DNA of 64,000 nt from Octopus sinensis (Eukaryota). Positions 22,740 through 62,890 of the stretch are shown piece by piece. Every line of letters begins with the position of its first letter. The first letter of the stretch is position 1. The notes under the pieces were generated by a model that saw only the letters and a program-made list of their open reading frames with translations, did no database searches and had not been told where the DNA came from. Position numbers and translations under genes: made by a program. The stretch is from NCBI RefSeq assembly GCF_006345805.1, contig NC_043025.1:9300001-9364000 (forward strand), written 5' to 3'.

Positions 22740-23500
22740 CGTGTACAGTGTCTCCATCTAGCAGATCTATAAACGGATTATACTTTTTAATATTCAGGGT
22801 TTACTTGTCACCATTCATTCTGTAATAAGCAGAGTAATGTAGCTGACCAAGAGACAAAACATGGTGACTATTGTTGGTCTTATTAGTGCCAGGAAGAACA
22901 TTCAGTTATAAAATACTTTAGAGAAACTGAATTTTCCAATATTTATGTTAACTTACGCAAGTTTTTGAAACAATCTCTTTTGTATATTGTTGTTTACCTC
23001 ATTCTATAAGTTTTTTAGGAACTATATTAATTTCTTTCTTTTTCTAGCAAATTTCATTTAAAAGACATGGCCTTTGATAAGAATATAAGTAAAATTATGC
23101 TTAGTGACATTTAATATTTTAAAGGATTTATTCGTAAAAATTCACATAAGGTAAGTTGTTCCTTTTATTGCCTTCTCAAAGTTACTTATTTGATTGATAT
23201 TTCATACATAATATTAAATGTTCCTAAGTAACCACGTGTATTCGTCCCTGATATTTCATTTCTTTCTCCACAACTTTCTTCTAATCCTCATTATCATTAG
23301 ATTTTATAAATATTTAACCCAATCATGAAGCATGTCAGAGTTGATGGAATGTGAGTGAGAGAGAAGCCTGTCATCACACACTGCAACGGAGTATTCTGGC
23401 AGGAAATATTCAGTCGTCCAAGAGATGAGGGACAGATGCAGCCAGTAGATGGATCGTGACTTTGTCGTGACGTTCTCTTGCTATAAACGGTTGAAGGTTT
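22740..23500 (+). other. Gene A putative 5' non-coding exons/leader region
   Basis: Inverted homology to about 62180-62890. Splice signals are conserved in both copies: TTTCTAG acceptor ~23048, GTAAGT donor 23151, CATTAG acceptor 23300, GTGAGT donor 23351. No in-phase ATG was found. Confidence 0.5.
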
Positions 23501-23635
23501 TACGGACATCAAGGGCTACACCATTTCTTTTGCAGAAGTTGTCAAACACATGGAAATACTAATGTATCACATAGAAATCAAATCCTCACTTGATCTGGCT
23601 TTATAGTATTGTACTTCTTCTAATCATTGAAGACT

Positions 23636-23934
23636 GGAGGCACATGGCCTAGTTGTTAGAGCAGCGGACTCGCGGTCGAGGGATCGCGCCTTCGAATCTC
23701 AGACCGGGCGATGTGTGTGTTTATGAGGAAAACACCTAAGCTCCACGAGGCTCCGACAGAAGGTAATGGCGAAACTTCAACTGACTCTTTCGCCACAACT
23801 TTCTCTCACTCTTTCCTCCGGCATCTTGCAGCTCACCTGCGACGGACCGGCGTCCCGTCCAGGTGGGGAACCTATACGCCAATAAAACCGGGAAACCGGC
23901 CCTTATGAGCCGAGAAGGAACAAACAAACAACAA
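23636..23934 (+). mobile_element. tRNA-derived SINE, family B
   Basis: A-box TGGCCTAGTTGTT and B-box TTCGAATCT; tail GAGAAGGAACAAACAA; four copies in the window. Confidence 0.85.
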
Positions 23935-24563
23935 ATCATGGAAGAGATAAAAATACCGAAAGGAATAAAGCTGATGGTTGTTTATGATTTTTTCTTAACC
24001 ATTGAAATATTGGACTTTAGAATAATAGGCTGGTAGTCAGCAGATGAGACACTGTCTACCATGAAATGGTAGAGTTCGATGATTCTCCTAAATATTCTTC
24101 TGTCCACCTCTTTACTAAACTATCAATCGTTAATACCAACAAAGGCTTTCCGTAATTTTCAATAATTTTTAGTTAACTGTTTTTAAGATATTTTCTTCAA
24201 ATATTGTGACTTTATTTCTAGCGAACACTTGTGTGAGTGTGTGAGAGAGAGAAAGAGAGTGTGTGTATGTTTGCGTTTGTGTGTGTAGTCATCCCACGCG
24301 TCTAGATCAACAATAACTTCAAACAAGCGAAACCATGAAGACTACTGTAACTTATGTCGGCATGAGAAGCAGAAGCAAAATGATGATGATGATGATGATG
24401 ATGATGATTATGATGATGATGATGATGATGTGTGTATCTTTCTTGCCCATTTTTTTTTCTCTTTGAAATCCCTTTTTTTCTCACCCAAACATCTTCCTTG
24501 TTCTCTCTTCTCCTCTCTTTCTCCTTTAATATATTTCATACGGTTTCACTTTCTTCCCTTCAG

Positions 24564-24715
24564 ATCAACGAAACAAATTCATGGGGTCTGACATATCTGA
24601 TGGCTGCTTGTCAAGCGGGAAACATAGATTTGATAAATTCCTTAATAGAAGCCGGGTCTGATTTAGACATGAAGGACAGAGATGATTGTACAGCATTTCA
24701 TTATGCTGTGAGTGG
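24564..24715 (+). CDS. Gene A ankyrin exon 1
   Basis: ttcag|[51 protein letters not shown]|gtaag. Confidence 0.85.
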
Positions 24716-26087
24716 GTAAGTTCAGAATTAGCCAGAATCTATAAATCTGTTTTGTTTACTTCCAATTCCAGGCAGGTTAAATGTCCAAAGATGCCCCCGA
24801 GTAGTGCCAGTGTGATACGACAACAGGAGCACTCCGTCGGTTACGACGACGAGGGTCCCAGCTGTTTGCTTGTGAAATTAATGTGCAAGTGGCTGAGTAC
24901 TCAACAGACACGTGTACTCTTAACGTAGTTCTCGAGGAGATTCAGCATGACACAGAGTGTGACAAGGCTGACCCTTTGAAATACAGGTACTATTCATTTT
25001 TGCCAGTTACGTGAAATAAAGTGTCTTGCTCTAGGACACACACACGTAGCTTAGTATTTCGGGCATTCCGCTCGCAATCGTATGGTGATGAGTTCAATTC
25101 CCGTAAGGTCGTGAGTTCAATTCACGTTGCTCCAGTCCACTCAGCTGGCAAAGATGAGTAGCAATCACATTTCAAAGGGCCAACCTTGTAACACTCTGTG
25201 TCACACTGAATCTCCCTGAGAATTACGTTAAGGGTACACGTGTCTGTGGAGTACTCAGCCACTTGCACATTAATTTCACTACCAAACTGTTCAGTTTGCA
25301 CGTTAATTTCACGAGCAGCAGGCTGTTCCTTTGAATGGATCAATTGGAACCCTCGTCGTCATAACCGAAGAATACGACAGCAACATGATAGTAAGAAACA
25401 GCAACATCTTTTTTCTCACATTCTCCATGAATTCTCTTCATTATGGAATCATAAAATCCTTTTTGGTGACCTGTAGTCAAAACAGATTATTTTTGTTTTG
25501 GAGATAATCTTTGAGACCCAACAGTTCTTAAGACTGACCCACTGCGATTCAATATCTTCTATTAATATTGATTATGGAGAGATGAATACATTTTTCTCCT
25601 CCAGCAATGTTTATTTCAGTTCTGAAACAGGAAAAAAGGGTTTCCATAGTTTCTTATGGCAGTAATAATCTTTAAACTCCCTCCCAGAGATTATGATACC
25701 CCATACATCCATAACATACTCAACTCATTCGATGAAATATTAACTGTAATTTCAACTCCATCTCGGGTTAAAAATTCATTTGCCTTAAATTCTTGGAATC
25801 AATTTGAAATGAACTCCTTAATCACTGACCTGAACCTGTTAGCAACTCGGGGACTCTCACTGCCCCCAAATACACGTCCATTCTAGCTAACATCCTCAGT
25901 TCAAAAGTAGTTTCTCAACTATCTCTCTACTTCACTTGATATCAATTCTCATTTTGCTTCCAGTTCTGTCCCTCAGAACTTGTCTGACATCTTTGGTGCA
26001 TGTGCGACTATGCCACGCGTCTCTGGTAATTTACCATTTGTTGAAGTTGTTGCTATTTTAGATTTTTTATACAGTTTCACACACACA

Positions 26088-26121: not shown

Positions 26122-26907
26122 TTCTTCTACTCTTTTATAAGCTTCCGCCCAAACGCTGTGGTCATGCTAGAGCGCCGCCAGTGTAATCACCTTTTCCTTG
26201 GCCATTCTTATGCGATTGCCTTTTGGTGAAAGAGGGAGTTCAACATAGTTGCTCCCATTTGAGTTTTTGCTGTGATATTGGTGTATCCTTCATAGAACCA
26301 GCATAGTTTCCTTGTCCCGTATTCTGAACGTTCTTAGAATTCATCCAACCATTATTATTTCAATGTCTGCGATCTTTTTCTTTTTACTTTCAGCAAGCAG
26401 CATACTGTGGTGCCACTGATAGCCTCCAAAGGGGCCAATGCAGAGAAATGCAACGCCCAGGGCAACAGTCTTCTCCATCTGGCGGTGGAGACGGGCTGTA
26501 AAGATATGGTGAAAGCAGTATTACATGTCACTGAAAATAAGAGTGTACAGGTTAGTGTGTTTATAAATATACTCACATGTACACACAGAAACACACACAC
26601 ACGCACAGTATGTTTGTTCCTTCTCAAGCCATGCATGGCTCGTAAGGGCCGGTTTCCCGGTTTCCTTGGCTTATAGGTTCCCCACCGGGACGGGACGCCG
26701 GTCCGTCGCAGGTGAGCCACAAGATGCAGGAGGAACGATTGAGAGAAAGTTGTGGCAAAAGAGTCAGCAGAAGTTCGCCATTACCTTCTGCCGGAGCCGC
26801 TTGGAGCTTAGGTGTTTTGCTCATAAATATACACGTTGTCCGGTCTGAGATTCGAACCGGTGATCCCTCAAACGCGAGTCCACTGCTCTAACCACTAGAC
26901 CATGTGC

Positions 26908-28363: not shown

Positions 28364-29910
28364 CATACATACACACATAAATATATATATATATTTAATT
28401 TACACACACCACATATATATATATAGGAAATATTTACATATTTCATGTGATGTTTAGAGGGACTTTTCTCTTTCTGTGTTTTTAATTCTTGTATCTTCTT
28501 TTCTAGACGATATTTTTAATATTTTTATTGCTTTTCAGATCAATAAACAAAACGTGAACGGTGACACACCTCTACTTCTGGCTTGTCACAGGGGTAACAC
28601 AGAAGTCATTCAACAACTTCTCTTGTATAAACCTGATGTTAATCTGGAGAATAAACATAATAACACGCCGCTACACTGGGCCTGCAGTTGGGGATTTAAA
28701 GACATTGTTGAACAACACTTGCTGTTTGATGCCGACGTCAATAAGAAAGATATATATCACTACACCCCTCTACACTGGGCCTATGATAGTGGACATCTTG
28801 AAGTTGTTCAACAGCTCCTATGGTCGAGCAAGTGCTGTTCAAAAACTTCCTTAACTAAAGCTGATGTCAATGCTGTGGATTCAGACGCTGTTACAGCTCT
28901 ACATGTGGCCTGTGGACTTGGATACGAAAATATTATTAAAGAACTTCAAATACCTGAACTTAAAGTCAATGCGAAAGATATTAAATATGGTGACACACCT
29001 TTACACTGGGCCTGTCGCAGTGGACACAAACAAGCTGTTCAACAACTTCTGAAATCTAATCCTGATGTTAATCTAAGGAATATAGAGGGCAACACACCTC
29101 TACACCTGGCAGTTCTAAAGTAGGTTCCCTTGAATCTGGATTATCCAAATCTCTTTTATGTTTTCAAAGTTTTTCATTGATTCACTTTTGTCATTCTCCC
29201 ACCGTGGCTCGTCCGCCGACTTCTCTCTTTCACACTGCAATGACACTGTAATCTACTTCGTTAATTAATCATTACCATATATGCTGTTGTAGGTATCTGA
29301 CTAGATTCTTTACCTTATTTCATCCTCCGTTATCTCGATGTTACAGGTTCAAGTCCTGTCTGTTTTCATTTCACTCCATCGAAACCCCCCTCTTCCCCTC
29401 CCCCTCTTTCTCTTTCTCTCTCTCCCCCTCTCTCTCTCTCTTTTACTGTCCTTCTTTCCTCTGACCCTGGACTAAATACAGGATCGTCTCATTCCAATAT
29501 TTAGGTTTGTTTCTTTAGGATGACAGTTCAAATCCTGCCAGAGAATTTATTGTCACCCTAGGGTCGATACAATGTATTCCAGTAATATCTAGGGGTTCAG
29601 TTTGATTAACTGTTCCCCCTCTCTCCTGTTCTTATGTCTTAATAGTGTTGAACAAAATACCTTGCAGTATCTGAGGCCCTTTATATTCTGGGTTCAAATC
29701 CTGCTGACGTCAACTTGTCCTTTCATTCTTGCGAAGTTGATGAAAAGGCAATACCAGTTATGCTCTGAAGTCCATACAATAACTGTACCCTCTTCTCCAC
29801 CCCTAGATTTCAGACCTTGTACCTATGTAATAGTTGATCATTTGATCATTGTACTGTATATATGTATTTACTCAGGTGTATATATATATATACATATACA
29901 TACATACATA

Positions 29911-30618: not shown

Positions 30619-33600
30619 TGTATGTATGTATTAATGTATGTATGTATGTATGTATGTATGTATGTATGTATGTATGTATGTATTAATGTATGTATGTATG
30701 TATGTATGATGTATGTATGTATGTATGTATGTATGTATTAATGTATGTATGTATGTATGTATGTATGTATGTATGTATGTATTAATGTATGTATGTATGT
30801 ATGTATGATGTATGTATGTATGTATGTATGTATGTATGTATGCGTTTGTATATATATATATATAATTATTGATGCATTAGGCTTTAGTGATCTAATTACT
30901 TTTGTTTCCATTAATTAATGTCCCAGTAATTTGCAATTTCTATAACTTTCAGACAACACTACGATGTGGTGGCTTTGATGCTGGCCCAGGTTAGTCCACA
31001 TATACATATTATATGCACTATGTAGTATACATTAGTGTTCTAACGTTGAATACTAATAAACCCGGCTGTTTTATGAAACCCTTGTTAATACAGCAACATC
31101 AGGAGGCGCAATGGCCCAGTGGTTAGGGCAGCGGACTCGCGGTCGGAGGATCGCGGTTTCGATTCCCAGACCGGACGTTGTGTGTGTTTATTGAGTGAAA
31201 ACACCTAAAGCTCCACGAGGCTCCGGCAGGGGGTGGTGGCGATCCTTGTTGTACTCTTTCACCACTCTTGCTCCCACTCTTTCTTCTGTTGGCCTGCTCG
31301 CCTAGCCAGCGGGGTGGCGTCATTCGAAGGCTAAAACAGTGCGAACGCATTGTGACCAGCGATGTGTAACAACATCTGATGGTCTGGGGTGGTGGCGACC
31401 CCTGTTGTACTCTTTCGCCCCAACTTTCTCTCGCTCTTTCTTCCTGTTTCTTGTCCCCGACTTCCTACGCAACTGCTGAGCCTGGATGCACATTCATCCA
31501 TCCGTCGATGCTCTCGGTGTCGGGGGTTGACCTGCTTTCTCTTCTGCGGGTCTTACGAATAGCAAAGGTTCACGTTTCGGACTTCTCCCATCTTCTGAGC
31601 TCTGGGACGAAGACCGTTCGCTCAACGGCAACATCAAAAGAATTCGTTAGAAATTATAATTCTTCTTTACTAGACTTAATCTGCTAATCCTGTGTTCGTC
31701 TATTTCAACTCACCTAAAGCTTATTATTGCGAGGTATGAACGTAGATGACAGCTTGATAGACTTATCATGTCTCTAACACACACCCATAGCAAGTTATAG
31801 AGGGACAATATGGAAGGTCCACTTCACTGACAAACATCAAATGTACACAATCAGTTTAATCAAGTCCCCAGTAGAAGACACAAACGATACCTTGATATCT
31901 ACCCCGATTTTTATGCAACTTTACATTCTTTGTTGTTTTTTTATCTCTATAAAGAGTCAAGTGGAATTGGATATCAAGAACTGCAACAAAATGACACCCT
32001 TGCTTCTAGCTGTCTCCGAGGGTCATCTCGGAATGACCCACAAGCTAGTTTTACATAAAGCTGATATAAAGGCGGTTGATGCAGATAATAATAACTGCCT
32101 GCACCTTGCTGTGAAGAAAGGGGTATTTCATTCTGAGGACGAGACCGTAGAGATTTTAGATAAGGTAAGTCTTAAACTCGTTTATAAATATATGAGAGAG
32201 AGACAAACAGACAGACAGACATTGCTTGTCATGTCTCTATTCACATCCATCTCTCTCTCATCTCTTTTTCCCTTCCCCCGCTATTCTCTCTCTCCTCTCT
32301 CCCTCCCTTTAACCTCACCATCAGAACATCACCCCTCTGCTAAGATTATTACTTTACCTCCACCTCCTGTCATGGACGCTTCTCTCTCCCCTTTTTTTCT
32401 CTCTCTCTCCTTTTCTTTCTCCCCCCTTCTGTCTCACTCTCCACCTTATCCTCCTTTTCTCTCTCATTTTTCTTTCTCTTCTCTTTCCCTTTAACTAATC
32501 ACTTGAAAGCGTTACAATTACCTCATGTCATGGACGCTTACCTCTCACTCTTTTTCTATTTCTCCTTTTTTTCTCTCTGTCCCTCCTTTTTCTCTACCTC
32601 CTCCTTTTCTCTCTCTCTCTCTCTCCTTTTTCTTTCTCACTCATTTCTTTCTCCCTCTTCTCCCTCCTCTCCCTCTAATCATGTGAAAGCATATTGTGCT
32701 TTATTATAGTGATACTTGTTCCGCTATATTTCTTATGGTTTGATTTTGATTTTGATTATGTTTTGATGCTTTGATTTTGTTTCATATTGTTTTTTATCGA
32801 ATATTTTGTGATATTTGTGACTGACAAATAGATATTTATTCATTAAATACGTGTAAAGTTGGTGTTAATACGTTTTGTTCTGTTCAATATAATAGCCATA
32901 TATTTAAAGTTTTGGTTTTTTTTTCAGACAAGAAAATAAATTCCGAATGTAGTAAAGCTGTAGGAACAGCAAAGAAAGATTGGTTATTTGCCCTTATAAG
33001 ATGGAACACATTTGCCAGCAGGTGGCAGGGTAAAACACCCAATCTTTCTTTGTAATTGTTAGAGCTTTACTGCATTCGAAATTTAATTTCTTGTGTGTAA
33101 AATACCAAATACGTTCGACATTTCTACAGTTTGTTTATAAAATATTGTCGTATTTAAAATATTGTTTTACTGTAGAAAACAGAGTAAGAACAAATGGAAA
33201 TGACAAATAGACTTAACTTGAGGTGATGTAGGAACTCAATACTGTGTAATGAGTTTAATCACTGGATGTGCAAAGTATGTGTAGATGGAGGCGAATTGTT
33301 GTGTAATTTGGGGCATCAATGATGTGTATTTGAGTAACATTGTACTCATCGTTTTATATTTCATCATTTGTAGTTCTACAATATGCTTAATTTGAGCAAA
33401 AAAGAGAGGCGATCTGGCACAATCGTTGCTATGTATCTAGCCTATTCTGGAGGAAACTTTCACCATAAAAACAAAAGTGATGAGACCCCACTGGATCTCA
33501 TCGAATATCCAGTTTTAAAGCAGAAAATGAAAACGCTTTTCCCATCGCTGTAAGTATTCTCTGACATTGAAAAGATAAACTGGTTCATTTTTATTTTGTA

Positions 33601-36600
33601 TATAATTATGTTTATATGTTTGTTTTGTTTAGGTTTAGTTCTATCAGTACGTTATACTGTGGCTAGCATCTTGACCAAAGGCCATCCAGCAACAGTAAGA
33701 AGAACAATTAACAGAAAATGCTGTTGTTAGGGATCAAAGGACATCTATTTTCATTAACATGATTGGCTGTGTTGATAGCTATATACCTCACTGACTCCCT
33801 CATCTACGTCTCTCACATCCTCATTTTGAAGTTCTGGGACCACCAGGAATATGTAGTACTTAATAATGAAACGAATAAACACATTTTGAAATTGTTACTT
33901 GGAAGTAGCTAGAATTTATCTGTCTACCGACATTTTTTGTGTCTCCTCTGTCCAAATCAGTCACTTTCACATGGACAAGTGGACAAATTGTGAGAAGATG
34001 TAGAGCAATGATTTCTTCAGATACACCAAGAACAGCTACATCATCCATGGCAGATAACAGAGCTTTCTCTATAAACCTGGATTCAGCCATAACTAGAGAC
34101 AGGTTTGGAAGCAGTGTTTTCTGATATGATCCTTCATTGTGTGATCCGGTAAAGATTTTTGCTTTAATATATGTCATTTCGATGCTCAATTCAGAGATCA
34201 TTTATCGAATATCTGCAATTTCCTTATGGATGGGTTGTTTTGTTTGACAGTACTTGTTGGAAAAGACACACAGGTCAGGCAATAAAAGGACCACTTTGGT
34301 AGTTGGACCATTTCCTATATTCCATCCATCATAGAACCATTGTGTACCTTTTGTTGGACTGGGACCATCAGGCGGTTCGTGGTACATTTAAGGCAGATCA
34401 AAGCATGACATTTATTGCATTCAATACATCAATTCTCAAAAGATTTCTCTGGTTTTGTACATATATGTCAGACATGATTCTCAGGGTATTATTCTGTTTT
34501 ATGACTGTGACCTGTTTTGTTACATACTGTTCACTATACAAGGAGCCATGGCAGTTGTATCCTGTCTGTCCAACCATACAATTCAAAATTAAATGTCTAA
34601 ATATAGAGAACTTGTTAAACAGGTTAAGTTTTGTTCAGAAGAAATTAGTTCTCTACTAGAATTGAAAAATATTTCTGGAATGTATGGAGCAATTTTTGTG
34701 ATGTCCCAGAGTCAAGACACATATTTAACATGTATGTGAATGCTACACGAATATATGTAGCAGTCATACCACAAATCTGCATTTATGTAATTATTTAAAG
34801 AAAATACTTTTATGTACTCTTATTGGTCCTTGTAGTGTCTCATGATATTCTGTACTCTAAACATGTACTCAATGCGATATTTGTTATAAACTAATGTTAT
34901 CGGTGGGATGTGTTTATGTCTTGTTCCACAGATGTCTGCTGTGTGAAGTTAACGAACCTACAGTGAAGTTCCAACCATGTGGACACACCGTTACATGCAA
35001 AGATTGCTGTTTAAAAGTTCAGCGTAAAACTTGTCCAAAGTGTCAACAGATTATAGTTGAGAAAAGCGGATTCGGTAAGAATACAATTTGATGATCTGTC
35101 TGTTTGTCTCATTGACATTATGCTGTTGAATAATGTACTTCGTGTTACTATGTAGAGTCACACCTGTCATAAATGTAGCAGATTTATGATAAAAAGTTTT
35201 CCAGGTATCTTTCCTTATTGATACTTTATCAATCACCTCATTCACCAAACTTTGTCTTCATCCAAATACAAGGCTTGCCACTGTCTGCAAGATAAGACTA
35301 ATGAGGGATATTGCAAGTTAAACGGTGACTAATAGACATATTAATAAAACTCCAGAGTTCTTTCAGTAAATATCAAGTTTTTACAGTGTGGAGGTACATG
35401 GCCTAGTGGTTAGAGCAGCGGACTCGCGGTTAAGGGATCGCGCGTTCGAATCTCAGACCGGGCGATGTATGTGTTTATGAGCGAAACATCTAAGCTCTAC
35501 GCGGCTCCGGGAGAAGGGAATGGCGAAACTTCTGCTGGCTCTTTCGCCACAACTTTCTCTCACTCTTTCCTCCTGCATCTTGCAGCTCACCTGCGACGGA
35601 CTGGCGTCTCATCCAGGTGGAATACCTATACGCCAAGGAAACCGGGAAACCGGCCCTTATGAGCCAGACATTGCTCGAGAAGGAACAAACAAAGTTTTTA
35701 CAGTCAATTGTGAGTGACTAGAGGTAATTAGTAATTCATTATTTAACAGAGTGTAGTGGCTACTTTTAAAACGGCACCAATAACAATGAAGTCACAAACT
35801 AATTTGCAGAACAAGATCTCTCAACTGAGGTGGGGAGCAGAATTAAGGGACTGAATAAAAAGTTTTGCCTTAAGAGGGGAAATATGGCTGCTTCTGGTAG
35901 GGAGAGCAGAGAGAGAAAGACAGATAGAGAGTGACGGGGGAGTGATAGAGAGAGGGAGAGAGAGGAGTGATAAAGGGGAGAGAGAGGGATAGAAGAGTGA
36001 TAAAGAGGAGGGAGGGAGCAGTGATAAAGAGGAGTGAGAAAAGATGGGGAAGTATAAAGATGAGTGGAGTGGGGATCGGTGATGGGGTGTGGATGAATTT
36101 AGGAGGTTGCGAAAGGAGTATAATGAGTGGCAGAGGTAGAGGAGGGAAGGGATATTGTAAGGATAGGCTGTGGGGAATAGATTTAATGGGGACATATTGT
36201 GATAAACAGGGCTCACCAAGTAAATCGCCAATTGTCTTGATCCTTTGCCATTTCCTCTGTAAGGATCATTTCTCACCACTTTGCCCTACGCCTTTCCCGG
36301 GTTTCCCTGGTCCTTCCACATTTAGAGATCGGTACTTCTTTATGCGGCCGTCCTCATCCACCCACATCGCATAACCATACCAGTGCACATATCTGCTGCC
36401 GCTTACTCTTTTACTTGTTTCAGCCTTTTGACTGCGGCCATGCTGGAGCACCAACTTTAGTCGAAGAAATCGACCTCAGGACTTATTCTTTGTAAGCCTA
36501 GTACTTATTCTATCAGTCTCTTTTGCCGAACCGCTAAGTTACGGGGACGTAAACACACCAGCATCCGTTGTCAAGCGATGTTGGGGGGAACAAACACAGA

Positions 36601-47551: not shown

Positions 47552-47754
47552 TCACTCTGTCTGAGGTTGATATTCAAGTACGTCCAAGCACTCAGCTTTC
47601 AGAAGAGCTTCTCTGAGTGTTGTGAATGTGAATTCTTCTGGAGCACAAGTTGCCGACCATTTGCGGAGCATCTGGAAGCTCTGTTCTGTACTGTTATTTA
47701 AATTTTCAATCTTGATCTTTTCCAACTGGACATTTTTAATTCCTAAAATATCAC
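47552..47754 (-). CDS. Gene B terminal Death-domain exon
   Basis: GDILGIKNVQLEKIKIENLNNSTEQSFQMLRKWS..TFTTLREALLKAECLDVLEYQPQTE*. Confidence 0.85.
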
Positions 47755-50260
47755 CTGCAAAACATACAACAATAAGAAATAATTGCAACAACATCAACAA
47801 TAAAATAAAAGACGTGTTCTGTAGTTTGTAATAAATTATAACAAAGAAATTATATCAGTTGAGAAATTTTAACAATAATTAAGAAACATGAATAATATAA
47901 GACAGTGTTCTCAATTTCTCAGAATCGTGATTAAAAGTTAACAAAGAAGTTGAAATAAAAGATAAAGATGGAGAAGAAATTAAAGGAAATTAATTGAAAA
48001 TTACTCTTGAGAAAATTTATGGTAAACAGATGGCAGGAAAATGGTTTGCATAGGCAAAAGTGTCACCAACTTTGACACCATTTCATCCATCGTTGCATTT
48101 TCTCTGCCTTCTATTCCTGGGAGGGTATTCAGGCCCCTCCTTCATAGGCTCCTATCAAAAGCAATTATCATTAGTCTTCGTGGCAAGATTCCCAAGTATA
48201 ACCAAGAGAGACTATTTTTTTTTGTTCCTTCTCGAGCCATGCCTGGCTCATAAGAGCCGGTTTCCCGGTTTCTTGACGTATAGGTTCCCCACCTGGACGG
48301 AACGCCGTTCCATCGCAGGTGAGCTGCTGCAAGATGCAGGAGGAAAGAGTGAGAGAAAGTTGTGGCGAAAGTTTCAGCAGAATTTTCGCCATTACCCTCT
48401 GCCGGAGCCGCTTGGAGATTAGAGGTTTTCGCTCATAAACACACACATCGCCTGGTCTGAGATTCGAACCCGCGATCCCTCGACCGCTCTAACCACTAGT
48501 CCATGTGCCTCCACAACAGAGACTATGGATATTATCCAACCATCTCATTCTTGATCTGCTGCTAAGTCTTCTGCCATTTGGTTCAGCTTGAAGAATCCAT
48601 CTTGCAGTTCTTTCCTGCAACATTCTAATCTGATATCTGTAGAAGCAGAACTGTAGAGATTTAGTCGCTCAACCTGAAGAGACTTCCAGATCTCTGCGTT
48701 GTGTGCATCTTTTGAGCAACCTAACACCAGAGACCCTTTAGAGGAATCCCATTTCGGCTGCTTGGTCTCATCACATGATCAACACCTGAAATAGTCATCA
48801 GTGCTTCTACTCCTACTCTCACTAAATAGTAATTACAACACATCAACCAATTAATATACAAATAGATATGATACGAGAATGATTTCAACTACGCAGAGTA
48901 CAAAATATACGTTATATATTTTGGAAGACACCAGATTAACCGTTCTGGGTTCATGATTCGTAATAAGTATTTCTTTTACTGGAACAATGCCACAATTTAG
49001 AGAGAAGTCGATAATGGAGAGGTTTTAGAGTAAAGCTGGCAAAGAGAAGAGTTTTAGTTTTGTAGGAAAGAAGACAGAAGTCACCATCATCTACACCATA
49101 CACATGCAGACGCTTAGGGCCTGAAGGAATCACTGCATCTACCAACATCTCCATCATCTGGGAAGTTATCATATTTGATAAGCAGGAAGGTAGAAGGGGT
49201 TAATGGGGATTCTAAACTGTGTACTCAATGCACACAATAAGTAATGTGAGGTCAGAGGTAGGTTGATGGAGAGGAAGGTGTTTGTGAGTAGTAGATATAC
49301 AGGAATATTTAGTTGTAAGAACAACTGTGAAAGGCATGGACGACAGTTTCTGTTACCTAGGTGACATAGTTAGGAGTGGAGGAGACTATTCTGAAAGCAA
49401 TGGGATTAGAGAAAAAATGAGGTGGCAAACTGTGCGGGGAGCTGTTTGTTATCCTTGCTGACAAATAAAATGTCACACAAACTGCCCACTCTTGGGTTAA
49501 CGACGTTGCATTTGATAATGTGGTCCTCTTCTCCTAAGGGAAAGAATGATGTCACACCTGGAACACTTTTCTTCTGACGACGTCTGCCAGATTAAGGCAG
49601 ATATCTGCATCAACAACAACAACAACCTACCAGTGAACTTAGTAAAAATCTAAAGAAACAAAATCATTGACATTAACTCATCTGTTTGTACATAAACAAC
49701 AACATATTTTAGATCCCTACTTTAAAAGAGAATATTAAATCTTTTGTGTCTTCTAATTAATCCATTGTACCAACCATGTAAACTCGATTTTATGAAGTTT
49801 CTTTCATAGAATTACTTAACAGCTAAACTTTCAATTGGAAATTAAAAGAATGGAAACTGTTCTCAATCATTCTAACAAACAAAAGCTTAAGGGAAGGCAA
49901 AATTTATAAAAATCAATTAGGCATTATATACTCACCAACTTCTCGCCATTTACTCCCTAACTTATTTGCAACCTTTTGAATATGTATCTCCTTCAATTTT
50001 AGGGACACTGAAATAAATAGTTCCAACTTTTATGCATCATGCTATAATTTATTTATATATAAAAGAATTTATTTGTCTCTATTAAAATATCATCGATAAT
50101 CATATAATGTAGAAATTATCACATTTAATTATCACTTGATAACACTGTTCTTAGTTTTATCTTTCCTTTCTTATATCTGTGCCAAATCAATGGCATGGCA
50201 TTTTCCTCACATCTCTACACTTCACTAACCAACATTCTTCTCATTTTCTGCTTAATTCAA

Positions 50261-50293: not shown

Positions 50294-53200
50294 ATGATGG
50301 TGATAGAACTTTCTTCGACGGTCAAAAGGCTTCAGTGACAGAAACAGTGTGTCTGATGTTATTGTTAATATAAGAACAAATTTACAAGGAATATGTAACC
50401 CTACCCACACCCCATTCCTCCACCACTATTATACCACACTTGTCAATAATGCTAATTATAATGAGATAATAAATTAATGTCATTATTAGACTTTAGAAAT
50501 TATATCTAATTAGTATCGCATAAATATAAACAAATATTTCACTTTTTGTTCCATGTGAAATCATGTCAAGACACAATCACATCTGGACATTACTGGACTA
50601 TAAGGGTCAATGACCCCAGTTTGTAGGGATGCGGTACTGGACCCAAATAAAACAAAATATTTACATGGAATAAACTGTTAGGTGAGCGAACAAGGTGGCG
50701 TTATGACAAAATAAGGTTACGTTTCAGACATACAATTGTAAGACTATCAATCAATAATAGCTAATTAATTATCATGTTAATGAGGTATACGGCTAGTACA
50801 GTAGCACATTGCCTGGCATTGCAATACTTGATATCTATAGAGATTGTATATAACATGTCAAAAGGATATCTAACCATCGTTATAATGATATCTATATAGA
50901 TTATATATAATCTGAGTGAGGGATACGTGACTCCCATTATAATGTTATCTATAGATTATATATAACCTGACAAAGGGATATCTGACCATCGTTATAGTGA
51001 TATTTATATAGACTTTATATACCTTGACAAAGGGATATTTGACCATCATTATAATGATATCTATATAGATTATATATATTCTGACTGAGGGATACGTGAC
51101 TCCCATTATAATGTTATCTATAGATTATATATAACCTGACAAAGGGATATCTGACCATCGTTATAATGATATCTATATAGATTTTATATACCCTGACAAA
51201 GGGATATTTGACCATCATTATAATGATATCTATATAGATTATATATAATCTGACTGAGGGATACGTAACTCCTATTATAATGTTATCTATAGATTATATA
51301 TAACCTGACAAAGGGATATCTGACCATCGTTATAGTGATATCTATATAGATTTTATATACATTGACAAAGGGATATTTGACCATCATTATAATGATATAT
51401 ATATAGATTATATATAATCTGACTGAGGGATACGTGACTCCCATTATAATGTTATCTATAGATTATATATAACCTGACAAAGGGATATCTGACCATCGTT
51501 ATAATGATATCTATATAGATTTTATATACCCTGACAAAGGGATATCTGACCATCGTTATAATGATATCAATACAGATTGTATATAAGCTGAGAAAAGGGG
51601 TATGTAATTATCATTATAAAGATATCTCTATAGATTGTGAGGTGTGTGGCTTAATGTTTAGGGCATTCGGCTCATGGCAATAAGGTCGTAATTTCAATTC
51701 TTGGCGGTATGTCATGTCCTTGAGCAAGACACTATATTCCACACTCCTCGCCTCCACTCAGCTGACAAAAATGAGTCCTACCAGTTATTGAAAGGGTTGG
51801 CCTTTTCACATTCTGTGTTATGATGAATCCCCCTGAGTATTAGATTAAGGGTTCATATATCTGTGGAGTACTCAGCCACTTTCACGTTACTTTCATGAGC
51901 AGCCTGTTTCCTTGATTAGCAAACTGGATCTCTCATCCTCCTAACCGATGGAGTGCCAGTTTTCTATATAGATTGTATCTGAGAACAGTTGATATTATAG
52001 TAGTTCCATGAGCAATCACAGAAAAATGGTACCAGGGCCAGTACCAAATACTTACAATAATTTCTTTCACCAGTCAAATAACAACGACCAGGTTCCAAGA
52101 TTCAATTTAAACGTAAGAACGGAAATAAAACCAACAGTTAAAAAACACAGAAAAGTGTGTTTGTATTAACATTAATATAATCTAAAAACCAATAAGAATG
52201 AGTATAAATATGGATGGAAAGTGTTATTCAAATCATGTAGCAAGTGTTGATTATATATGGTTACAAATAAGGAGTTGTGTGTTCAAATCACATTAGGAAT
52301 TCCTATTCTATTCCTCTTTGTATATTTTATACGTGAACATAAATACTTTGTTTATATGTAAACATATGTTCACAGTTCATTACAGTCAAGACATTCAGTG
52401 AAATTAATTTAACGATCAATTCTCTTAGGATTAATATTGTAATTTTTTTAATTTATCACAACAATATATGTCCTAACCTGAGACATTCCGGGTACGTACC
52501 CTAACAAGAGATGACATCTCAGATCAAACAGTGGACTAATATTATTGTTTAGCATTTTCATAACATGATAAATTATGAAGAATTTCTGGAGGATAACTTT
52601 GCAAAATATGTTGAAACTATCGATGCCATCTTTCACCAAATAAACATTCACAGCAACACAAAACAATTCATTAAGCAACACAATTCATTAAGCAAAACAA
52701 TTAATTAAGCAATCAAAGCCTCTAATGTTGTTCTTTAATCGCTCAGTTGAGATTTTCTCATTGAATCTTCTATTTTACCAAAAATCATTCTGATGTTCTT
52801 GTAAGTAACATTGTCTTTTATCAGATACTGATAAATCATTAAGCCCTCTAATCACTCACAATTGACTGTAAAAAACATGATATTTACTGAGGGAATCTGG
52901 CAGCTATTAATATTTCTGTTAGTCGCCGTTTAACTTGCAGTATCACTCATTAGTCTTATCTTGCAAACAGTATCCTCTTGAAGTGAAGCAAACCTTGTAT
53001 TGGACGAAGACGAAGTTTGGTGGATGAGGTGATTGATAAAGTATCACAAAGAGAAAAGACACTTTTATCATAAATCTGCTACATTTATGACAGGTGTGAC
53101 TCTACATAGTAACATGAAGTATATTATTCAACAGCATAAAGTCAATGAGAAAACAGACAGATCATCAAATAGTATTTTACCGAATCCACGTTTGTCAACT

Positions 53201-56200
53201 ATAACTTGTTGACACTTGGGACAATTTTTAGGCTCATTTCTGAACAGCAATCTTTACATGTAACAGTGTGCTCACATGGTTGAAACGTCACTGTAGCTTC
53301 ACTAGATTTACACAGCAGACATCTGTTGAACAAAACATAGAGGCATAACACTGATGATATTCATTTATAACAAATATTGCATTGAGTACATGTTTAGAGT
53401 ACAGATTATTACGAGATACTACAAGAACCAGCAAAAGTACAACAAAAAATCTTTTTTAAATAATTACATAAATGCAAATGATATCTGTACAAAACCCTAG
53501 AACCCTTTTGAAAATTCATGAGTTGAATGCAGTAAAAGTCATGCTTCTATCTGCCTTCAATGCACAAGTAATCTCTTGATGATCCCAGTCCAAGAAAAAG
53601 GTAAAAAATGGTTCTATGATGGATGGAATATAGGAAATGGCCCAACCCACAATTTCAGTGCCTGACCTGTGTGTCTTTTCCAACTATTGCTGTCAAACAA
53701 AAGCAGTCCATCCACAAGGAAATTACGGATAGTCGATGAGGGATTTCCGAATTGAGCATCGAAATTGCAGATATTAAAGCAAAAATCAGAGGTATTCGAT
53801 TAATGAATGAAATATGGCGACTGTTCTCTATTGCAGGAGGCCAATAGGCACTTCTGGTTTGTGATTAGTGTGAAAAAGATGATGAAACGATGTGTGTAAA
53901 AGATGATGAAAAGATGATGTGGTCTTTGGTCAAAACACAGAATAACGTATTGGGAGAATTAAAACTAAACAAAACATATGAACATAATTGTGTACAAAAT
54001 AGAAAATTCTCTGCTTAGTCTTGTCATTGTTAGAGAATACTTACAATGGTGGTGGGAAAAGTGCTTTAATTTTTTCCTTTAAATTTGTATCGTTGATAAG
54101 ATCCAGCGGCATCACATTCCATACGTTTCTGTGGTAAAAGTTGGCTCCATTGTCGGCCAGAAAACAAGCCACTGCTAGGCTTGAAAGCTTGCCTCCTTTG
54201 CTAAGCTGGAGCTTTTTGTAGTACTACAAATGATGAAATATAAAAAGGACGAGTACAATAGTACACAAATACAAACAAAATCATAACATCAAGTCAAATA
54301 CAAGAAATATAATGGAACAAATATCACAATAATAAAATACCTATCTATGCAAGTGGCTTGATGAAGGCAACTGGACACAGCAACAGAAATACTTTGGGAA
54401 GAATATTGTGTATATTAATACAACCCCTGTCAGCATAGACGATTGGCATTAAATGATGATGATGATGACGATGATGATGATGATAAGGGTGATGGTGGTG
54501 GTTGTGATGGTGATGATCGCGACGATGAGGACGATGATGATGATGAACACAACAAGATAACAAAACATATATGTTATATCAGAAACAACAAAGAACACCT
54601 AAGACATAGCAATTTCTTCAGATGTAACAAAACCAACACCACACAGACTTATCCAAATATATCAACAATGTTTCCATAATTATTAAAGAAACATCTTTGG
54701 GTGATGAAGGTGAAGTAAAAGAAGTAAGAATTGGTGTCACGGTTGAGGCAACACACCAACACATTATATTTGATAAACTGTGGAAACTGTTAGTCTGACA
54801 GACAATTCCAGCAATGGAGGGAGAAGGGCATTTGACTGCCAGGAGATTTTTTTACCAAAGTGGACATTACCACAACACAAAGATGACCATCAAATGTCTG
54901 AAATACAGTCACACATCTGTAGAGACCGTTACTCATGTGGGAATCAGTGAGTTGCTCTAAGTGCGCAAAATTTAACAGTAAATACTGTTAAATCTACTGA
55001 TGGTTAGATGTTGATGTATTTGTATTTTCACACACATACACACACACGCATACACACACACACAAACACACACACACTCACACACACACACACACATGTA
55101 TGTGAGTGAAAGTAAGTGAACAAATGAGAGAGGGGCACTCAACCAATTCATTGGAAGTTACATGTATGGATCAAAACAGTTTGGATCATTAAACTATTTG
55201 ATCCATATATATATATATATATGTATGTATGTACGTACGTATGTATGTATATTGCTTTATTGTATCCAATCTCTAGTGTTCTAACATTCAATATTGTTAT
55301 GACATGTCCACATGAAGCCAGAGGATAAATATTGTGTACAAGAAGTAAGACAGGGAGCTGTTTTTTCAGAATCCCTCATAGAATGGAATGGATGTATTTA
55401 TCATGGCACTTGCATTCTAAAGGTTGCCATCATGTCTCTCTGTTTCTCTTTCTATCTCTTATAAATAAATCCACACGTATATATATATTTACAAATAATT
55501 CTAAAACTTACCTTATCCAAGACAGTTAAGGATTCATCCTCAGAATGGAACTCCTTTTTCCTCACCGCAAGGTGAAGACAATTGTTTCCGATATTATCGA
55601 CCACATTTACGTCTGCTCCTTTAGAAATGAATTCCTGCATTATTCTGAAGTTGCCGCAAGAGACAGCTTGAAGAAATGGTGTTATACCATCCCAGTTTGT
55701 TATGTTCAATTTCACTGAATCCTTTGTCGAAGTAAAAAGAGAGAATGAAAATTTACATGAAAACCAGGGTGGCTATCAATGTGTCATTACTGCCTTCTAC
55801 TGGGTACTTGATCAAACCGATCGTGTACATTTCATGTTTGTCAGTGAAGTTAGCCTTGCATAAGGTCCCTCTATAACTTACTATGAGTGTGTTTAAGAGA
55901 CATGATACATCTATTAAGATGTAATAAACAGATTGGTTCAGTCTAATCTACGTTTATCCCTCACTGAAGTAAAATTTAGGGTAGTTCAAATGGACCGAAC
56001 ACAAGATTAGCAGGTTAAGTTTAATAAAGAAGACCTTTAGGACTTGCGTATAATTTTGATGTTACTAAATTAATAAGGGGTTCATAAAATTTATGTCAAA
56101 GCAAAATCGAACGCACAAACATGGAGTGTGTGTCGTTAAGTTCTTCGGCTGGTTGCATTTTTAGGTGTGAGAGAATATATTCTCAATGTGTCTGGTGGTG

Positions 56201-58214: not shown

Positions 58215-58863
58215 AAAGATAATTTTTTGTGATATATTTGTGTTAATTTCATAATAATCTTGTACACATTTCGTATAATCTAGTCATTAAAAAACTAACC
58301 TGGGATAGCATCAACGTGACTACATCATAGCTTTGTCTGAAAGTTATTCAAAGAAGAAAGAAAAATATTAAAAAATACGAAAATCATAGAGGTTGAGATA
58401 ATTAATATTTGTTAGGTATTTAATTAATGAAAACAGATTTAATGAGCTACCTACAACCTGTTTACATCAATAATTATATAGACACACATAAATATAATCG
58501 ATATATACACTCTAACCAGTTGATTAATCATATATATATACATCTGAATAAACACCACAATGTGTTCTATGGTACAACGAACAACAAGTTGACCTCAGCA
58601 GGATTTGAACTCAGGATACAAAGGGTCGTAAATAAATAACACAAGGTATTGTATCCAGCAGTATCCAGAAACAGGAAGAGGTTAGAATCCTTGAATATTA
58701 CTGTTTGATATTAAATGAACCCTTAGATATTACTGGTATAGATTATATCGACTCTGGAATTATTTCAGCTTGGAACATAAACAGTAAATACTTGTAGGGG
58801 ATGATTCTGTATTTAACCCTGGGTCAGAGGAAAGAGGGACATTACAAGACAGGAAGAGAGAGA

Positions 58864-58902: not shown

Positions 58903-61756
58903 GAAGTATGGTGTTTTATGTGGAGTAAAAGTAAGAGAGAGGATTTGAACATGTGATGTTGTGGTAATGGAGAATGAGATGAAGTGAAAGATCTAGTCAG
59001 GGACAACAACAACAACAACAAAAACAACTACAACAACAACAGCAAGAACAACAATAACAATAAATATGGCGGTGATTACTGAATAAAGTAGATGGTAGTG
59101 TCATTACAGTAAGAGAGAGAAAGAAGAAGAAGGATGACCCATGATGCTGACTCACCTTAGAACTGCCTGATGGAGTAGTGTGTTACCAGATTTATCTCTT
59201 TTATAGTAATCAATGCTCGGATGCTGCAGTAAGAGATTAACTGTATCCGTGTGTCCCTTGTCCCAGGCCTGGTGGAGTGGTGTGTACCCATTGGTAGCCT
59301 CAGTGTTTACATCAATAGCAGGGTGCTTCAGTAAATGCTTAACTGTATCTGTGTGTCCCTTGTTACAGGCCTGGTGGAGTGGTGTGCTGATTGCTATCCT
59401 TAGCATTTACATCAATAGCAGAGTGCTGCAGTAGATGCTTAACTGTCTCCGTGAGTCCCTCGGCACAGGCCTGGTGGAGTGGTGTGTGCCCTTTTTTATT
59501 CACAGCATTTACATCAATAGCAGAGAGCTGCAGTAGATGCTTAACTGTCTCCGTGTGTCCCTCGGCACAGGCCTGGTGGAGTGGTGTGTGCCCTTTTTTA
59601 TTCACAGCATTTACGTCAATATCAGAGTGCTGCAGTAGATGCTTAACTGTCTCCGTGTGTCCCTCGGCACAGGCCTGGTGGAGTGGTGTGTGCCCTTTTT
59701 TATTCACAGCATTTACGTCAATATCAGAGTGCTGCAGTAGATGCTTAACTGTATCTGTGTGTCCCTTGTCACAGGCCTGGTGGAGTGGTGTGCACTGATC
59801 TATATCCTTAGCATTTACATTAATATCAGAGTGCTGCAGTAGATGTTTAACTGTCTCCGTGTGTCCCTTGACACAGGCCCGGTGTAGTGGTGTGTACTGT
59901 TTATTGTCCTTAGCATTTACATCAATATCAGAGTGCTGCAGTAGATGTTTAACTGTATCCGTGTATCCCATGCCACAGGCCCATTGTAGTTCTGTGCACT
60001 GATCACAATCCTCAACATTTACTTCATTATCAGAGTGATGCAGTAAGAGATTAACTATCTCCGTGTGTCCCATGCCCCTTGCCCGGTGTAGTGGTGTGTC
60101 CTGATTGCTATCCTTAGCATTTACATCAATATCAGAATGCTGCAGTAGATGCTTAACTGTCTCCGTGTGTCCCCTGAGACAAGCCCAGTGTAGGGCTGTG
60201 ATCCTATTGGTCGCCATAGCATTTACATTAATATCAGAGTGCTGCAGTAGATGTTTAACTGTCTCCGTGTATCCCTCGTCCCAAGCCAGGTGTAGTGGTG
60301 TGTACTTATCGTTCTTCTTAGCATTCACATTAATATCAGAGTGCTGCAGTAGATGTTTAACTGTCTCCGTGTGTCCCCTGAGGCAAGCCCAGTGTAGGGG
60401 TGTGACCCAATAGTTGTCCTTAGCATTTACATCAATATCAGAATGCTGCAATAGATGTTTAACTGTCTCCGTGTATCCCTCGACACAGGCCCAGTGTAGT
60501 GGTGTGTACTGATTGCTATCTTTAGAATTTACCTCAATATCAGAGTGCTGCAGTAGATGTTTAACTGTCTCCGTGTATCCCTCGACACAGGCCCAGTGTA
60601 GTGGTGTGGCCCCATAGTCATCCCTAGCCTTTACATCAATATCAGTGTGCTGCAGTAGATGTTTAACTGTCTCCGTGTGTCCCTCGACAGAGGCCCGGTG
60701 TAGTGGTGTGTACTGATTGTTATCCTTAGCATTTACATCAATATCAGAGTGCTGCAGTAGATGTTTAACTGTCTCCGTGCGTCGATCCCAACAAGCCAAG
60801 TGAAGGGGTGTGTTCTGACATCTATCCTTAGCATTTACATCAATAGCATGGTGCTGCAGTAGATGTTGAGCTGTTTCTGTGTGTCCCTTGACACAGGTCA
60901 GGTGTAGTGGTGTGTTCTGATCGCTATCCTTAGCATTTACATCAATATCAGGGTGCTGCAGTAGATGTTTAACTGTCTCCGTGTATCCCTTGACACAGGC
61001 CAGGTGTAGTGGTGTGTTCTGATCGCTATCCTTAGCATTTACATTAATAACAAACTGCTGCAGTAGATGTTTAACTGTCTCCGTGTGTCCCTCGACAGAG
61101 GCCCTGTGTAGTGGTGTGTACTGATTTCTATCCTTAGCATTTACATCAATAGCAGAGTGCTTCAGTAGATGTTTAACTGTTTCTGTGTGTCCCGTGACAC
61201 AGGCCCGGTGTAGTGGTGAGTACTGACCGCTATCCTTGGCATTTACATCAATATCAGAGTGCTGCAGTAGATGTTTAACTGTCTCCGTGTATCCCTCGAC
61301 ACAGGCCCAGTGTAGTGGTGTGTACTGATTGTTATCCTTAGCATTTACATTAATATCAATCTGCTGCAGTAGATGTTTAACTGTCTCCGTGTGTCCCTTG
61401 ACACAGGCCAGGTGTAGTGGTGTGTTCTGATCGCTATCCTTAGCATTTACATTAATAACAAACTGCTGCAGTAGATGTTTAACTGTCTCCGTGTATCCCT
61501 TGTCACAGGCCGGGTGTAGTGGTGTGCACTGATCGCTATCCTTAGCATTTACATCAATATCAGAGTGCTGCAGTAGATGTTTAGCTGTCTCTTCGTGTCC
61601 CTTGACATAGGCCAGGTGTAGTGGTGTGTACAGATCGTTATTCGGAGCATTTACATCAATGTCAGGCTGCTGCAACAGATGTTCAGCAATTTCTGTGTGT
61701 CCGAGAGCACAGGCCAGATGTAGTAGTGTGTCACCATCTCTATTTTGTTGATTTAT
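47552..61756 (-). CDS. Gene B: paralogous ankyrin / RING / Death-domain protein with a 25-repeat ankyrin exon (two frameshifts; possible pseudogene or assembly errors)
   Basis: Exons 61756-59156, 58336-58300, 55721-55512, 54223-54045, 53322-53181, 50007-49936 and 47754-47552 have the same phases as in gene A. There is a 2-bp deletion near 59386 and a 1-bp deletion near 53244. Confidence 0.85.
48221..48512 (-). mobile_element. tRNA-derived SINE, family B
   Basis: Homolog of the other family B copies. Confidence 0.85.
49936..50007 (-). CDS. Gene B 72-bp Death-domain start exon
   Basis: ttcag|SLKLKEIHIQKVANKLGSKWREV|gtgagt. Confidence 0.82.
50830..51636. repeat. Minisatellite of 55-57-bp monomers in a 169-bp trimeric higher-order repeat
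   Basis: The GGGATACGT variant recurs at 50920, 51089, 51258 and 51427, interleaved with GGGATATCTGACC and GGGATATTTGACC monomers. Confidence 0.92.
51640..51958 (+). mobile_element. SINE family D (full length, old)
   Basis: tRNA-like head GTGGCTTAATG..TTCAATTC, GTCCTTGAGCAAGACAC core-like segment, family D tail. Confidence 0.7.
53181..53322 (-). CDS. Gene B RING exon (1-bp deletion)
   Basis: [26 protein letters not shown]/..CPKCQQVIVDKRGF; 142 bp versus 143 bp in gene A. Confidence 0.85.
54045..54223 (-). CDS. Gene B last ankyrin exon
   Basis: YYKKLQLSKGGKLSSLAVACFLADNGANFYHRNVWNVMPLDLIND.., resembling the Mind bomb A.ACFLA..GA....N....PLDL segment. Confidence 0.85.
55512..55721 (-). CDS. 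Gene B ankyrin exon
   Basis: DSVKLNITNWDGITPFLQAVSCG..NCLHLAVRKKEFHSEDESLTVLDK|gtaagt. Confidence 0.88.
57140..57660 (+). mobile_element. Old R4/Dong-like RT fragment
   Basis: YRYLGVDENI..YYSCIKTIWTSELSAFNKTVAHNVFAVPVL aligns by eye with the thumb region of the LINE at 6976-10198. Confidence 0.7.
58300..58336 (-). CDS. Gene B 37-bp exon (QSYDVVTLMLSQ)
   Basis: tttcag|...|gttagt; paralog of 30953-30989. Confidence 0.8.
59156..61756 (-). CDS. Gene B giant exon: 25 tandem 102-bp (34-aa) ankyrin repeats plus a partial 26th
   Basis: Consensus VNAKDxxQxTPLHxACxxGHTETVKHLLQHSDID. Expected length 25x102+53=2603 versus 2601 observed, matching the 2-bp deletion near 59386. Confidence 0.93.
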
Positions 61757-62179
61757 CTGAAAAGAAATAACAATAAAGAATCTAAAATTTGTGGCTAGGA
61801 AAGGAAAGGTAGAAGCCTTACACAATTCTCAGAAACAGAAGATAAAGTATTCGACTCATACACAGGAGGAATGATGCGTTTCTAGGGGTGAGTAATTAAA
61901 TGAGATTTGTATTGTATTTATAGACAGGTACACTCACAGGTATAGATAGATACATATACATGTGAGTGTGTCGATAATACACACACACGTATATTTATAA
62001 TCTCTTCCTTTCAGTGTTGTAGCAAAGGATTGGGTCTAGATAATGGAAAAAAGTGAAGAGAGTGTGTAGTGGGGAGTGATCTAAGACTCATCAAAGATTT
62101 GATGTTTTCATACATTTGACAGAACAAAGAATTGGCATAACTCCTGACGTCCAAAAGAACTTTCAACTGTGTATGGCAA

Positions 62180-62890
62180 GGGAACGTCATGACAAAGTCA
62201 CCATCCATCTACTGACTTCATCTGTCTCTCATCTCTTGGACTGAATATTTCCTGCCAGAATACTCCGTTGCAGTGTGTGATGACAGGCTTCTCTCTCACT
62301 CACATTCCATCAACTCTGACATGCTTCATGATTGGGTTGAATTTTCATAAACTCTAATGATAATGAGAATTAGAAGGTGGGGGTGAAGGAAGGAATGAAA
62401 TATCATGGACAAATATATGTGGTTAGTTAGGAACACAGGTGTGTATAAAATAACAATCAACTTTGAGAAGGTAATCAACAGAACAACTTACTTTATGTGA
62501 ATTTTGTTCAATATATTCTTTAATATATTGAGTGTCACTAAGCAAAAGTTTACTTATATTCTCATCGAATTCCATCTTTTAAAGGAAATATGCTAGAAAA
62601 AGAAAGAAATCAAAAGTTTCAAAACCTTATAAAATGAGGTAAACAACAATATAAAGAAGACTGTGTTTCTCACATTTCTCATAAAATATTACAAAAATTA
62701 GAAATTTCAATTTATCTAAAGTATTATTTACATCTGGATGTTCTTCCTGGCACTAATAAACCTAACAACAGTCATTGTGTTGAGTCTCTTGGTCAGCTAC
62801 ATTACTCTGCTTATTACAGTCTGATTGGTGACAAGTAAACGCTGAATATTGGAATGTACAGTCTGTTGGTCAGCCAGGTGGAGATACTGT
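62180..62890 (-). other. Gene B putative 5' non-coding exons/leader region
   Basis: Inverted homolog of 22740-23500 with conserved splice signals. Confidence 0.5.

Follow-up and report, generated by a model that had tools for sequence, protein, structure and literature searches.

The ubiquitin ligases of the Mind bomb family are the closest described relatives of the genes presented here. Human MIB2 is reported to act at RIPK1 complexes, which it binds via its MIB_HERC2-ZZ-MIB_HERC2 part (MZM) (PMC5912950). In reported assays of its two RING domains, the R1M mutant still ubiquitylates cFLIP and the R2M mutant does not (PMC7815719). For MIB1, an ANK-RING1-2 construct is reported to show no autoubiquitination with UbcH5B, dimerisation is said to rest on the coiled coil and RING3 (ccRING3), and the second RING of MIB2 is described as the equivalent of MIB1 RING3 (10.1101/2024.03.01.582834).

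The window analysed here is a stretch of 64,000 nucleotides from Octopus sinensis (contig NC_043025.1, positions 9,300,001 to 9,364,000), animal DNA rich in microsatellites. It carries two inverted, convergent paralogs with an ankyrin-RING-Death domain architecture, gene A (+, 23067-40293) and gene B (-, 62575-47552), with 7259 bases between their stop codons (Table 1). In self-comparison the inverted duplication extends over 22742-40703 (+) and 62893-47136 (-), the matching blocks, at 66-83% identity, fall in introns as well as in exons, and the exons common to A and B have identical phases. The inverted pair with matching phases proposed in a preliminary description of this DNA is therefore borne out by the self-comparison and the exon models (12 exons in A, 8 in B). 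From Met41 onward, the joined A model is identical to the named O. sinensis protein P0009 (537/537 residues). Relative to B, gene A carries two extra 72-nt spacer exons, and B lacks exons 2-3 of A, an in-frame loss. Pfam recognises ankyrin repeats and zf-C3HC4_3 (A, E=1.5e-9; B 5' half, E=2.2e-7) on the window exons, and Death in the last exon of B, the last exon of A alone giving no match; the proposed ANK-RING-DD order thus stands. The size gap in the ankyrin array, put at about 6 versus 25 repeats, was also recovered, with 6 TPLH-type motifs in A versus about 26 in the equivalent exon of B (22 at 34-aa spacing, 3 past a frameshift and 1 at the exon start). TRF counts 24.6 copies of 102 nt in this tandem array, and the 22 full repeats have a mean pairwise identity of 0.83.

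Table 1. Exons of genes A and B, positions in the window.
Feature	Position	Strand	Remarks
A exon 1	23067..23150	+	start codon and initial ankyrin helices; codon 16 is an in-frame TAA
A exon 2	24564..24715	+	ankyrin; contains Met41, start of named model P0009
A exon 3	26394..26550	+	ankyrin
A exon 4	28539..29119	+	six ankyrin motifs
A exon 5	30953..30989	+	ankyrin repeat end
A exon 6	31955..32164	+	last regular ankyrin repeats
A exon 7	33374..33549	+	terminal ankyrin cap, Mind bomb-type; PDB 8V0E (MIB1 ANK) best, E=0.0019
A RING exon	34932..35074	+	MIB2 RING1 equivalent; E=3e-16 to RING1, 0.002 to RING2
A spacer exon, 72 nt	38234..38305	+	decayed copy of Death exon 1; in P0009, P0010 and P0011
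A second 72-nt exon	39042..39113	+	degenerate copy of Death exon 1; in P0009, not in P0010
A Death-domain exon 1	39478..39548	+	length 71 nt here, giving a frameshift and a stop
A Death-domain exon 2 and stop	40091..40293	+	
B exon 1	62492..62575	-	ATG start, with an in-frame TAA two codons ahead of it
B large exon	59156..61756	-	102-nt units in tandem, about 26 ankyrin motifs; frame broken near 59386
B equivalent of exon 5	58300..58336	-	
B equivalent of exon 6	55512..55721	-	ankyrin
B cap exon, Mind bomb-type ankyrin	54045..54223	-	PDB 8V0E (MIB1 ANK) best, E=0.0004
B RING1 exon	53181..53322	-	1 nt short (frameshift); relative P0061 in frame here
B Death-domain exon 1	49936..50007	-	72 nt
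B Death-domain exon 2 and stop	47552..47754	-	Pfam Death, E=2.2e-6

Several other elements accompany the pair. Between the genes, at 45963-47130, a block of about 400 nt is duplicated, and a 57/169-nt minisatellite occupies 50829-51636 in the RING-Death intron of B. Decayed pieces of LINE reverse transcriptase and of the RNase H/integrase of LTR elements are found at 7000-10000 and 11488-12611 (+), with additional LINE-like pieces near 57133-57426. At 548-5640 (+) there are long reading frames of beta-rich look, broken by stops and frame changes, for which Pfam, NCBIfam and PDB gave no convincing match. The tail of the family model P0066 matches 740-1022 (E=1e-15), so that at another locus a related gene adjoins, or is annotation-fused with, an ankyrin-RING gene.

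Sequence comparison supports the derivation of this ankyrin-RING-Death family from MIB2, which narrows the Mind bomb origin first suggested. The cap exon has no Pfam match; in PDB, only MIB1 ANK falls below E=0.04 with the cap exons of A and B, and 8V0E is the sole match, among 60 hits listed, that runs through the cap in its best stretch. The relative P0036 retrieves full octopus MIB2 (P0168) at E=1.6e-50. P0168 has MIB_HERC2, ZZ, SH3_15, ankyrin and two RINGs, and its C-terminal half matches, in the same order, exons 2-7 followed by the RING; its RING1 is 54% identical to that of gene A over 46 aa.

The N-terminal Notch-ligand module, which had not been visible at first sight, is indeed missing. 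Searched by tblastn with residues 1-425 of P0168, the window, which reaches only 1.4 kb upstream of gene B, yielded no trace of MZM/REP (best E=1.2), and neither an MZM Pfam hit nor REP (SH3_15) repeats were found in the window exons or the fully listed models. As to MIB-HERC2/ZZ exons further upstream in transcripts, for which the preliminary description had allowed, one X2 contig has 1258 nt 5' of exon 7, where exons 1-6 take 1221 nt, and so leaves no room for MZM/REP, weak evidence in that this is a contig end. Of the terminal coiled coil and catalytic RING, no RING2 match was found in the window outside the RING1 exon, in keeping with the claim that a single RING is left. Two putative MIB remnants picked out by eye were rejected: 14200-14700 has no Pfam hit in three frames of 13977-14768 and no tblastn match, and 22740-23530 is exon 1 plus conserved intron, likewise with no tblastn match. 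The GC-rich segment 14218-14680 (+) is the first exon of the O. vulgaris model P0001, holds no domain and is probably an annotation artefact.

The Mind bomb E3 features present are thus the MIB-type capped ankyrin array and RING1, and by three of five defining features the A/B family is not a Mind bomb ligase. Among the 45 proteins examined, only P0036 and P0072 keep the catalytic terminal RING. These two ankyrin-RING-RING proteins have the same truncated start, cap and RING1 as the A/B family; unlike A and B, they retain the two RINGs of MIB2 and are without a Death domain, and they are likely to be truncated but catalytically complete relatives.

Which RING was kept bears directly on the ligase question. 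The first RING is closer to RING1 than to RING2 in 35 of 35 parsed cases (10 of the 45 proteins were unparsed). The eight zinc ligands (C3HC4) are intact in A, and in B only across the frameshift; in both genes the RING ends in CPKCQ, with Gln, not Arg, at the linchpin site. In relatives, all eight zinc ligands are present in 27 of 33 parsed RINGs, the Arg linchpin in 12 and the CP[IVM]CR end in 7; 21 have no Arg, two of these rows being mis-parsed, neither with Arg. Because the retained RING is RING1, dispensable in human MIB1 and MIB2, and the Death domain stands in the place of the catalytic RING, the E3 activity of A and B appears doubtful, and the coupling to ubiquitination that had been proposed is not borne out. 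The inactivity of human RING1, seen with few E2s, need not hold in octopus, and some members, in one subclade, may be active ligases in view of their zinc ligands and CP[IVM]CR ends. The alternative put forward by the preliminary description, which we regard as unlikely, is that the family consists of active sensor-E3 receptors in which Death domain clustering would replace the coiled-coil dimer and switch RING1 on, with targets or partners being ubiquitylated. The same residue counts speak for it, though octopus MIB2 RING1 itself has neither the Arg nor the CP[IVM]CR end, and the RING exon shows the least amino-acid change between A and B (dN 0.10-0.14). The Arg linchpin is described as helpful and not strictly required, XIAP being active with Tyr there (PMC12326332), and oyster IAPs are reported to have Death and RING domains together (PMC8917759). 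Against it stand the Gln of A and B, the Arg absent from 21 of 33 RINGs, and a RING1 reported as inactive or dispensable in both human Mind bomb proteins.

The C-terminal domain, identified by the preliminary description as a Death domain, is confirmed as a true Death fold by Pfam, profile, AlphaFold model and fold search. PF00531 is matched at E<=1 by 16 of 17 aligned members, the exception being the last exon of A alone, and the best solved matches of the Death profile are the RIPK1 DD (E=1e-12), ankyrin-G and PIDD. The predicted structure of the P0025 Death domain has six helices (pLDDT 93.5), both window Death exons being included in the alignment. The fold search with this model returned Death domains in all of the top ten places (Z 13.9-9.2, rmsd 1.6-2.6, 80-87 residues). 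The Death domains of RIPK1, ankyrin-G, PIDD1, FADD and RAIDD are the best sequence or fold matches, at 16-26% identity, which gives the fold, not the donor or partner; none of these proteins has ankyrin-RING1. In the full-length model of P0003, the ankyrin-RING part and the Death domain are ordered, and the spacer between them (376-409) has low confidence. The Death domain, encoded by two exons, occupies the place of the MIB2 coiled coil and catalytic RING.

The spacer of gene A has its own history. Its two 72-nt exons have phase 1-1, the same as Death exon 1, and share downstream intron sequence with that exon. In 6 of 6 pairwise tests none of 200 shuffles reached the score of the real sequences; the two are decayed duplicates of Death exon 1. 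The segment 38234-39548 (+) accordingly holds three tandem 72-nt exon copies, one of which is alternatively included (P0009/P0010), and P0004, P0005 and P0028 contain several 72-nt Death-exon-1-like units.

Neither A nor B is intact as assembled, a point missed by the preliminary description. Death exon 1 of A has 71 nt, not 72, so that the frame is shifted into a stop, at which the named models P0009 and P0010 terminate; leaving this exon out gives an open frame into the last exon. Where A has the early TAA, its relatives P0002/P0011 have Gln. In B, 2 nt are missing near 59386 (CA run) and 1 nt near 53237 (A run). The three frameshifts, deletions of 1-2 nt with two in short repeats, resemble common assembly errors.

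Public contigs of four runs (X1, X2, X13 and X19, from 24 listed) were mapped on 33300-40800, a range that covers gene A from exon 7 to its end. An extra base behind 39522 is present in the contigs of X1, X2 and X13, three of the four runs; X19 covers 39522 without it, cover being absent at 39530, and is ambiguous. A version of A in frame at Death exon 1 therefore exists among other public runs. The X1 changes at 33506, 35017, 38267 and 39107 are those of the near-identical models P0011/P0002, and what the runs show may therefore be an allele or twin, not A itself. Between P0011 and A, 13 of 537 residues differ; P0011 is listed on a contig equal in length to that of P0009 and is a recent duplicate or an uncollapsed haplotype. 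The exact join 33549 to 34932 (exon 7 to RING) occurs in X2, X13 and X19 contigs from three studies, which are of the kind 'RNA?', coded without tissue or level, no listed run being on record as RNA. The depth figures of these joined contigs recur on the spacer exon, and that of one X13 contig recurs on both Death exons; no contig among the mapped runs spans the RING to the Death domain.

The pair belongs to a larger family. In the profile search a family mark (cap, RING1 or Death) was found in at least 39 clusters among 150 matches listed; each match stands for a cluster, several species are represented, and the figure does not count genes. The three marks occur together in 19 of the 39 and the other 20 are without one, many being partial models. 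Members are spread over contigs of many sizes, with several on one of 17.06 Mb, and intact models are present in three Octopus species. Of the lineage-specific family first proposed, the multi-copy nature stands; the restriction to Octopus rests on the 14 of 39 hits looked up, all from O. sinensis, O. vulgaris or O. bimaculoides, and squid and cuttlefish could still hold members among the other 25. Since 111 of the 150 rows are long ankyrin proteins, weaker non-octopus members may also be hidden. The unnamed model P0082 reads RING-Death-LRR-partial Death and is perhaps a fusion of neighbouring genes. The database names of family proteins are automatic (e.g., 'MIB2-like' and 'ankyrin-1-like'), and no description of an ankyrin-RING1-Death family was found in the titles and abstract beginnings of the literature outside subscription journals and supplements. 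The octopus family is real and apparently undescribed.

In the tree, the terminal groups are short and sit on long stems with poor resolution. The ankyrin-cap-RING cores of A and B are separated by about 1.0 changes per site, and sister status of the two is unsupported (58/88). The grouping of three RING-RING proteins is neither recovered nor rejected (p-AU 0.15), and with the stems as they are, the order 'truncation, then swap' cannot be fixed.

The rates of change bear on the rapid evolution proposed earlier for the family. The A versus B dN/dS is 0.43 (bootstrap 0.30-0.60, 287 codons). An initial impression from BLAST-picked blocks that exons generally diverge faster than introns was rejected, being true with fixed flanks of one exon in five: exons 1, 7, RING and Death 2 have the same DNA divergence as their flanking introns, and exon 6 (31955-32164 vs 55512-55721) has diverged twice as much as its upstream intron (80/210, 0.38, vs 27/146, 0.18; p=6e-5). 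Silent sites of exon 6 diverged too (7/15 fourfold sites), CpG changes do not explain the excess, and exchange between paralogs or selection would fit it. The ankyrin surface gives signs of diversification. Across the 22 repeats of B, six surface columns, which we take to be the positions randomised in DARPins, carry 36.5 amino-acid changes over 15.1 sites versus 23.5 silent changes over 22.8 sites, which gives 2.3 as the ratio (binomial p=0.001), against 0.74 in the framework. The columns were chosen once the variability table had been viewed, and the repeats share history and are not independent, which makes the p-values optimistic. Since most ankyrin arrays vary at their surface columns, the variation in B is not specific to pathogen sensing.

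The same rates bear on the reading that truncated MIB2 copies simply multiply and decay in repeat-rich regions, mostly with little function, a neutral expansion to which we give a low probability. Both genes are broken as assembled, exon and intron identity is about equal for four of five exons, many models are partial or fused (P0066 and P0082 among them), and slippage alone can enlarge repeat arrays, all as this reading would have it. A dN/dS of 0.43 with an upper bound of 0.60, an array in B that stays free of stops over 790 codons with a framework ratio of 0.74, and intact models in three species argue against it, as do the spliced contigs, the in-frame base at A in three of four runs and frameshifts that look like assembly errors.

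Taken as a whole, the observations of the preliminary description are partly confirmed and its interpretation is partly supported. The explanation we favour, at about an even chance of being right, is that intact members are non-catalytic or weakly catalytic adaptors linking ankyrin targets to Death-domain complexes. The family would have arisen in the octopus line, by birth and death, from a 5'-truncated MIB2 copy. The ankyrin horseshoe, cap and RING1 were kept, and in the window and all scanned models the MZM/REP substrate modules are lost. The variable ankyrin array would bind a target protein, RING1 would be structural or weakly active, and the Death domain, on a flexible, length-adjustable spacer, would join or nucleate a complex of RIPK1/FADD/PIDD type. 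By established Death-domain biology, target binding would then lead to cell-death or NF-kB signalling. Members of the family come to differ as the 102-nt repeat is amplified in tandem, exons are lost and Death exon 1, of 72 nt, is duplicated.

The same parts could instead serve as decoys or brakes that join Death complexes or MIB ankyrin partners without catalysis and dampen RIPK1/caspase-8 or MIB2, which we consider improbable. Human MIB2 is reported to restrain RIPK1 in complex I, RING mutants binding without giving protection (PMC5912950), the MIB ankyrin region is reported as a main binding region in two-hybrid screens (PMC3979679), and several octopus models are without Death exon 1 or the entire domain. 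However, the part reported to bind RIPK1 and cFLIP is the MZM/ZZ part, lost in the family (PMC5912950; PMC7815719), the concave ankyrin face is described as conserved in MIB1 whereas the B repeats are most variable there, and expression of fly ANK+RING is cited as without phenotype (both 10.1101/2024.03.01.582834). A bolder form of the adaptor reading, which we hold only tentatively, sees cytosolic pattern receptors: DARPin-like arrays, with anything from 3 to about 30 repeats, that evolve under diversifying selection and are carried by a MIB2 scaffold, with Death signalling that needs no nucleotide switch, a spacer tuned by Death-exon duplication and, in one subclade, a reactivated RING1.

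Intracellular immune sensing in cephalopods is poorly known, and genes of this kind are hidden behind automatic names. If the proteins are sensors or adaptors, they provide a defined family for tests in haemocytes; if the favoured reading is true, MIB2, a conserved cell-death regulator that acts on RIPK1 and cFLIP, has been recast, its catalytic module swapped for a Death domain. As members differ at E2-contact residues, the family also offers a natural test of whether a silent Mind bomb RING1 can become active again.

Compared with known systems, the A/B family has the same capped ankyrin array followed by RING1 as MIB2 (octopus P0168 and human) and MIB1 (8V0E); it differs from them in having no MIB_HERC2, ZZ, SH3_15/REP or coiled coil with terminal catalytic RING, in the added Death domain, and in its many copies with variable repeat number. 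Truncated ankyrin-RING forms have precedent in plants, where the XB3/XBAT ligases combine ankyrin repeats and a RING without MZM/REP, and in arthropod 'mib1-like' clusters of about 400 aa, which have the same combination with no Death domain listed; the arthropod likeness is a feature score of 0.90, a lead only, from an atlas that omits small clusters. In ankyrins, DAPK1 and NF-kB p100/p105, a single chain holds ankyrin repeats and, at its C-terminus, a Death domain; unlike A and B, these proteins have no MIB cap or RING and are conserved and low-copy. Oyster IAPs, as reported, resemble the A/B family as an expanded mollusc family that joins Death and RING domains to a binding module, but this module is BIR, not ankyrin, and the RING is of the IAP terminal type (PMC8917759). 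Among molluscs, these IAPs are reported as least expanded in Octopus, with 10-11 genes (PMC8917759). No NACHT or NB-ARC domain gave a Pfam hit in the window exons or the fully listed models. NLR-type receptors pair a variable repeat sensor with a Death-fold effector and show lineage-specific expansion. The likeness to them lies in this proposed logic, whereas the octopus family has no nucleotide-binding switch domain and uses ankyrin repeats, not LRR; it is not an NLR and, if our inference holds, would act as a repeat-sensor and Death-fold adaptor.
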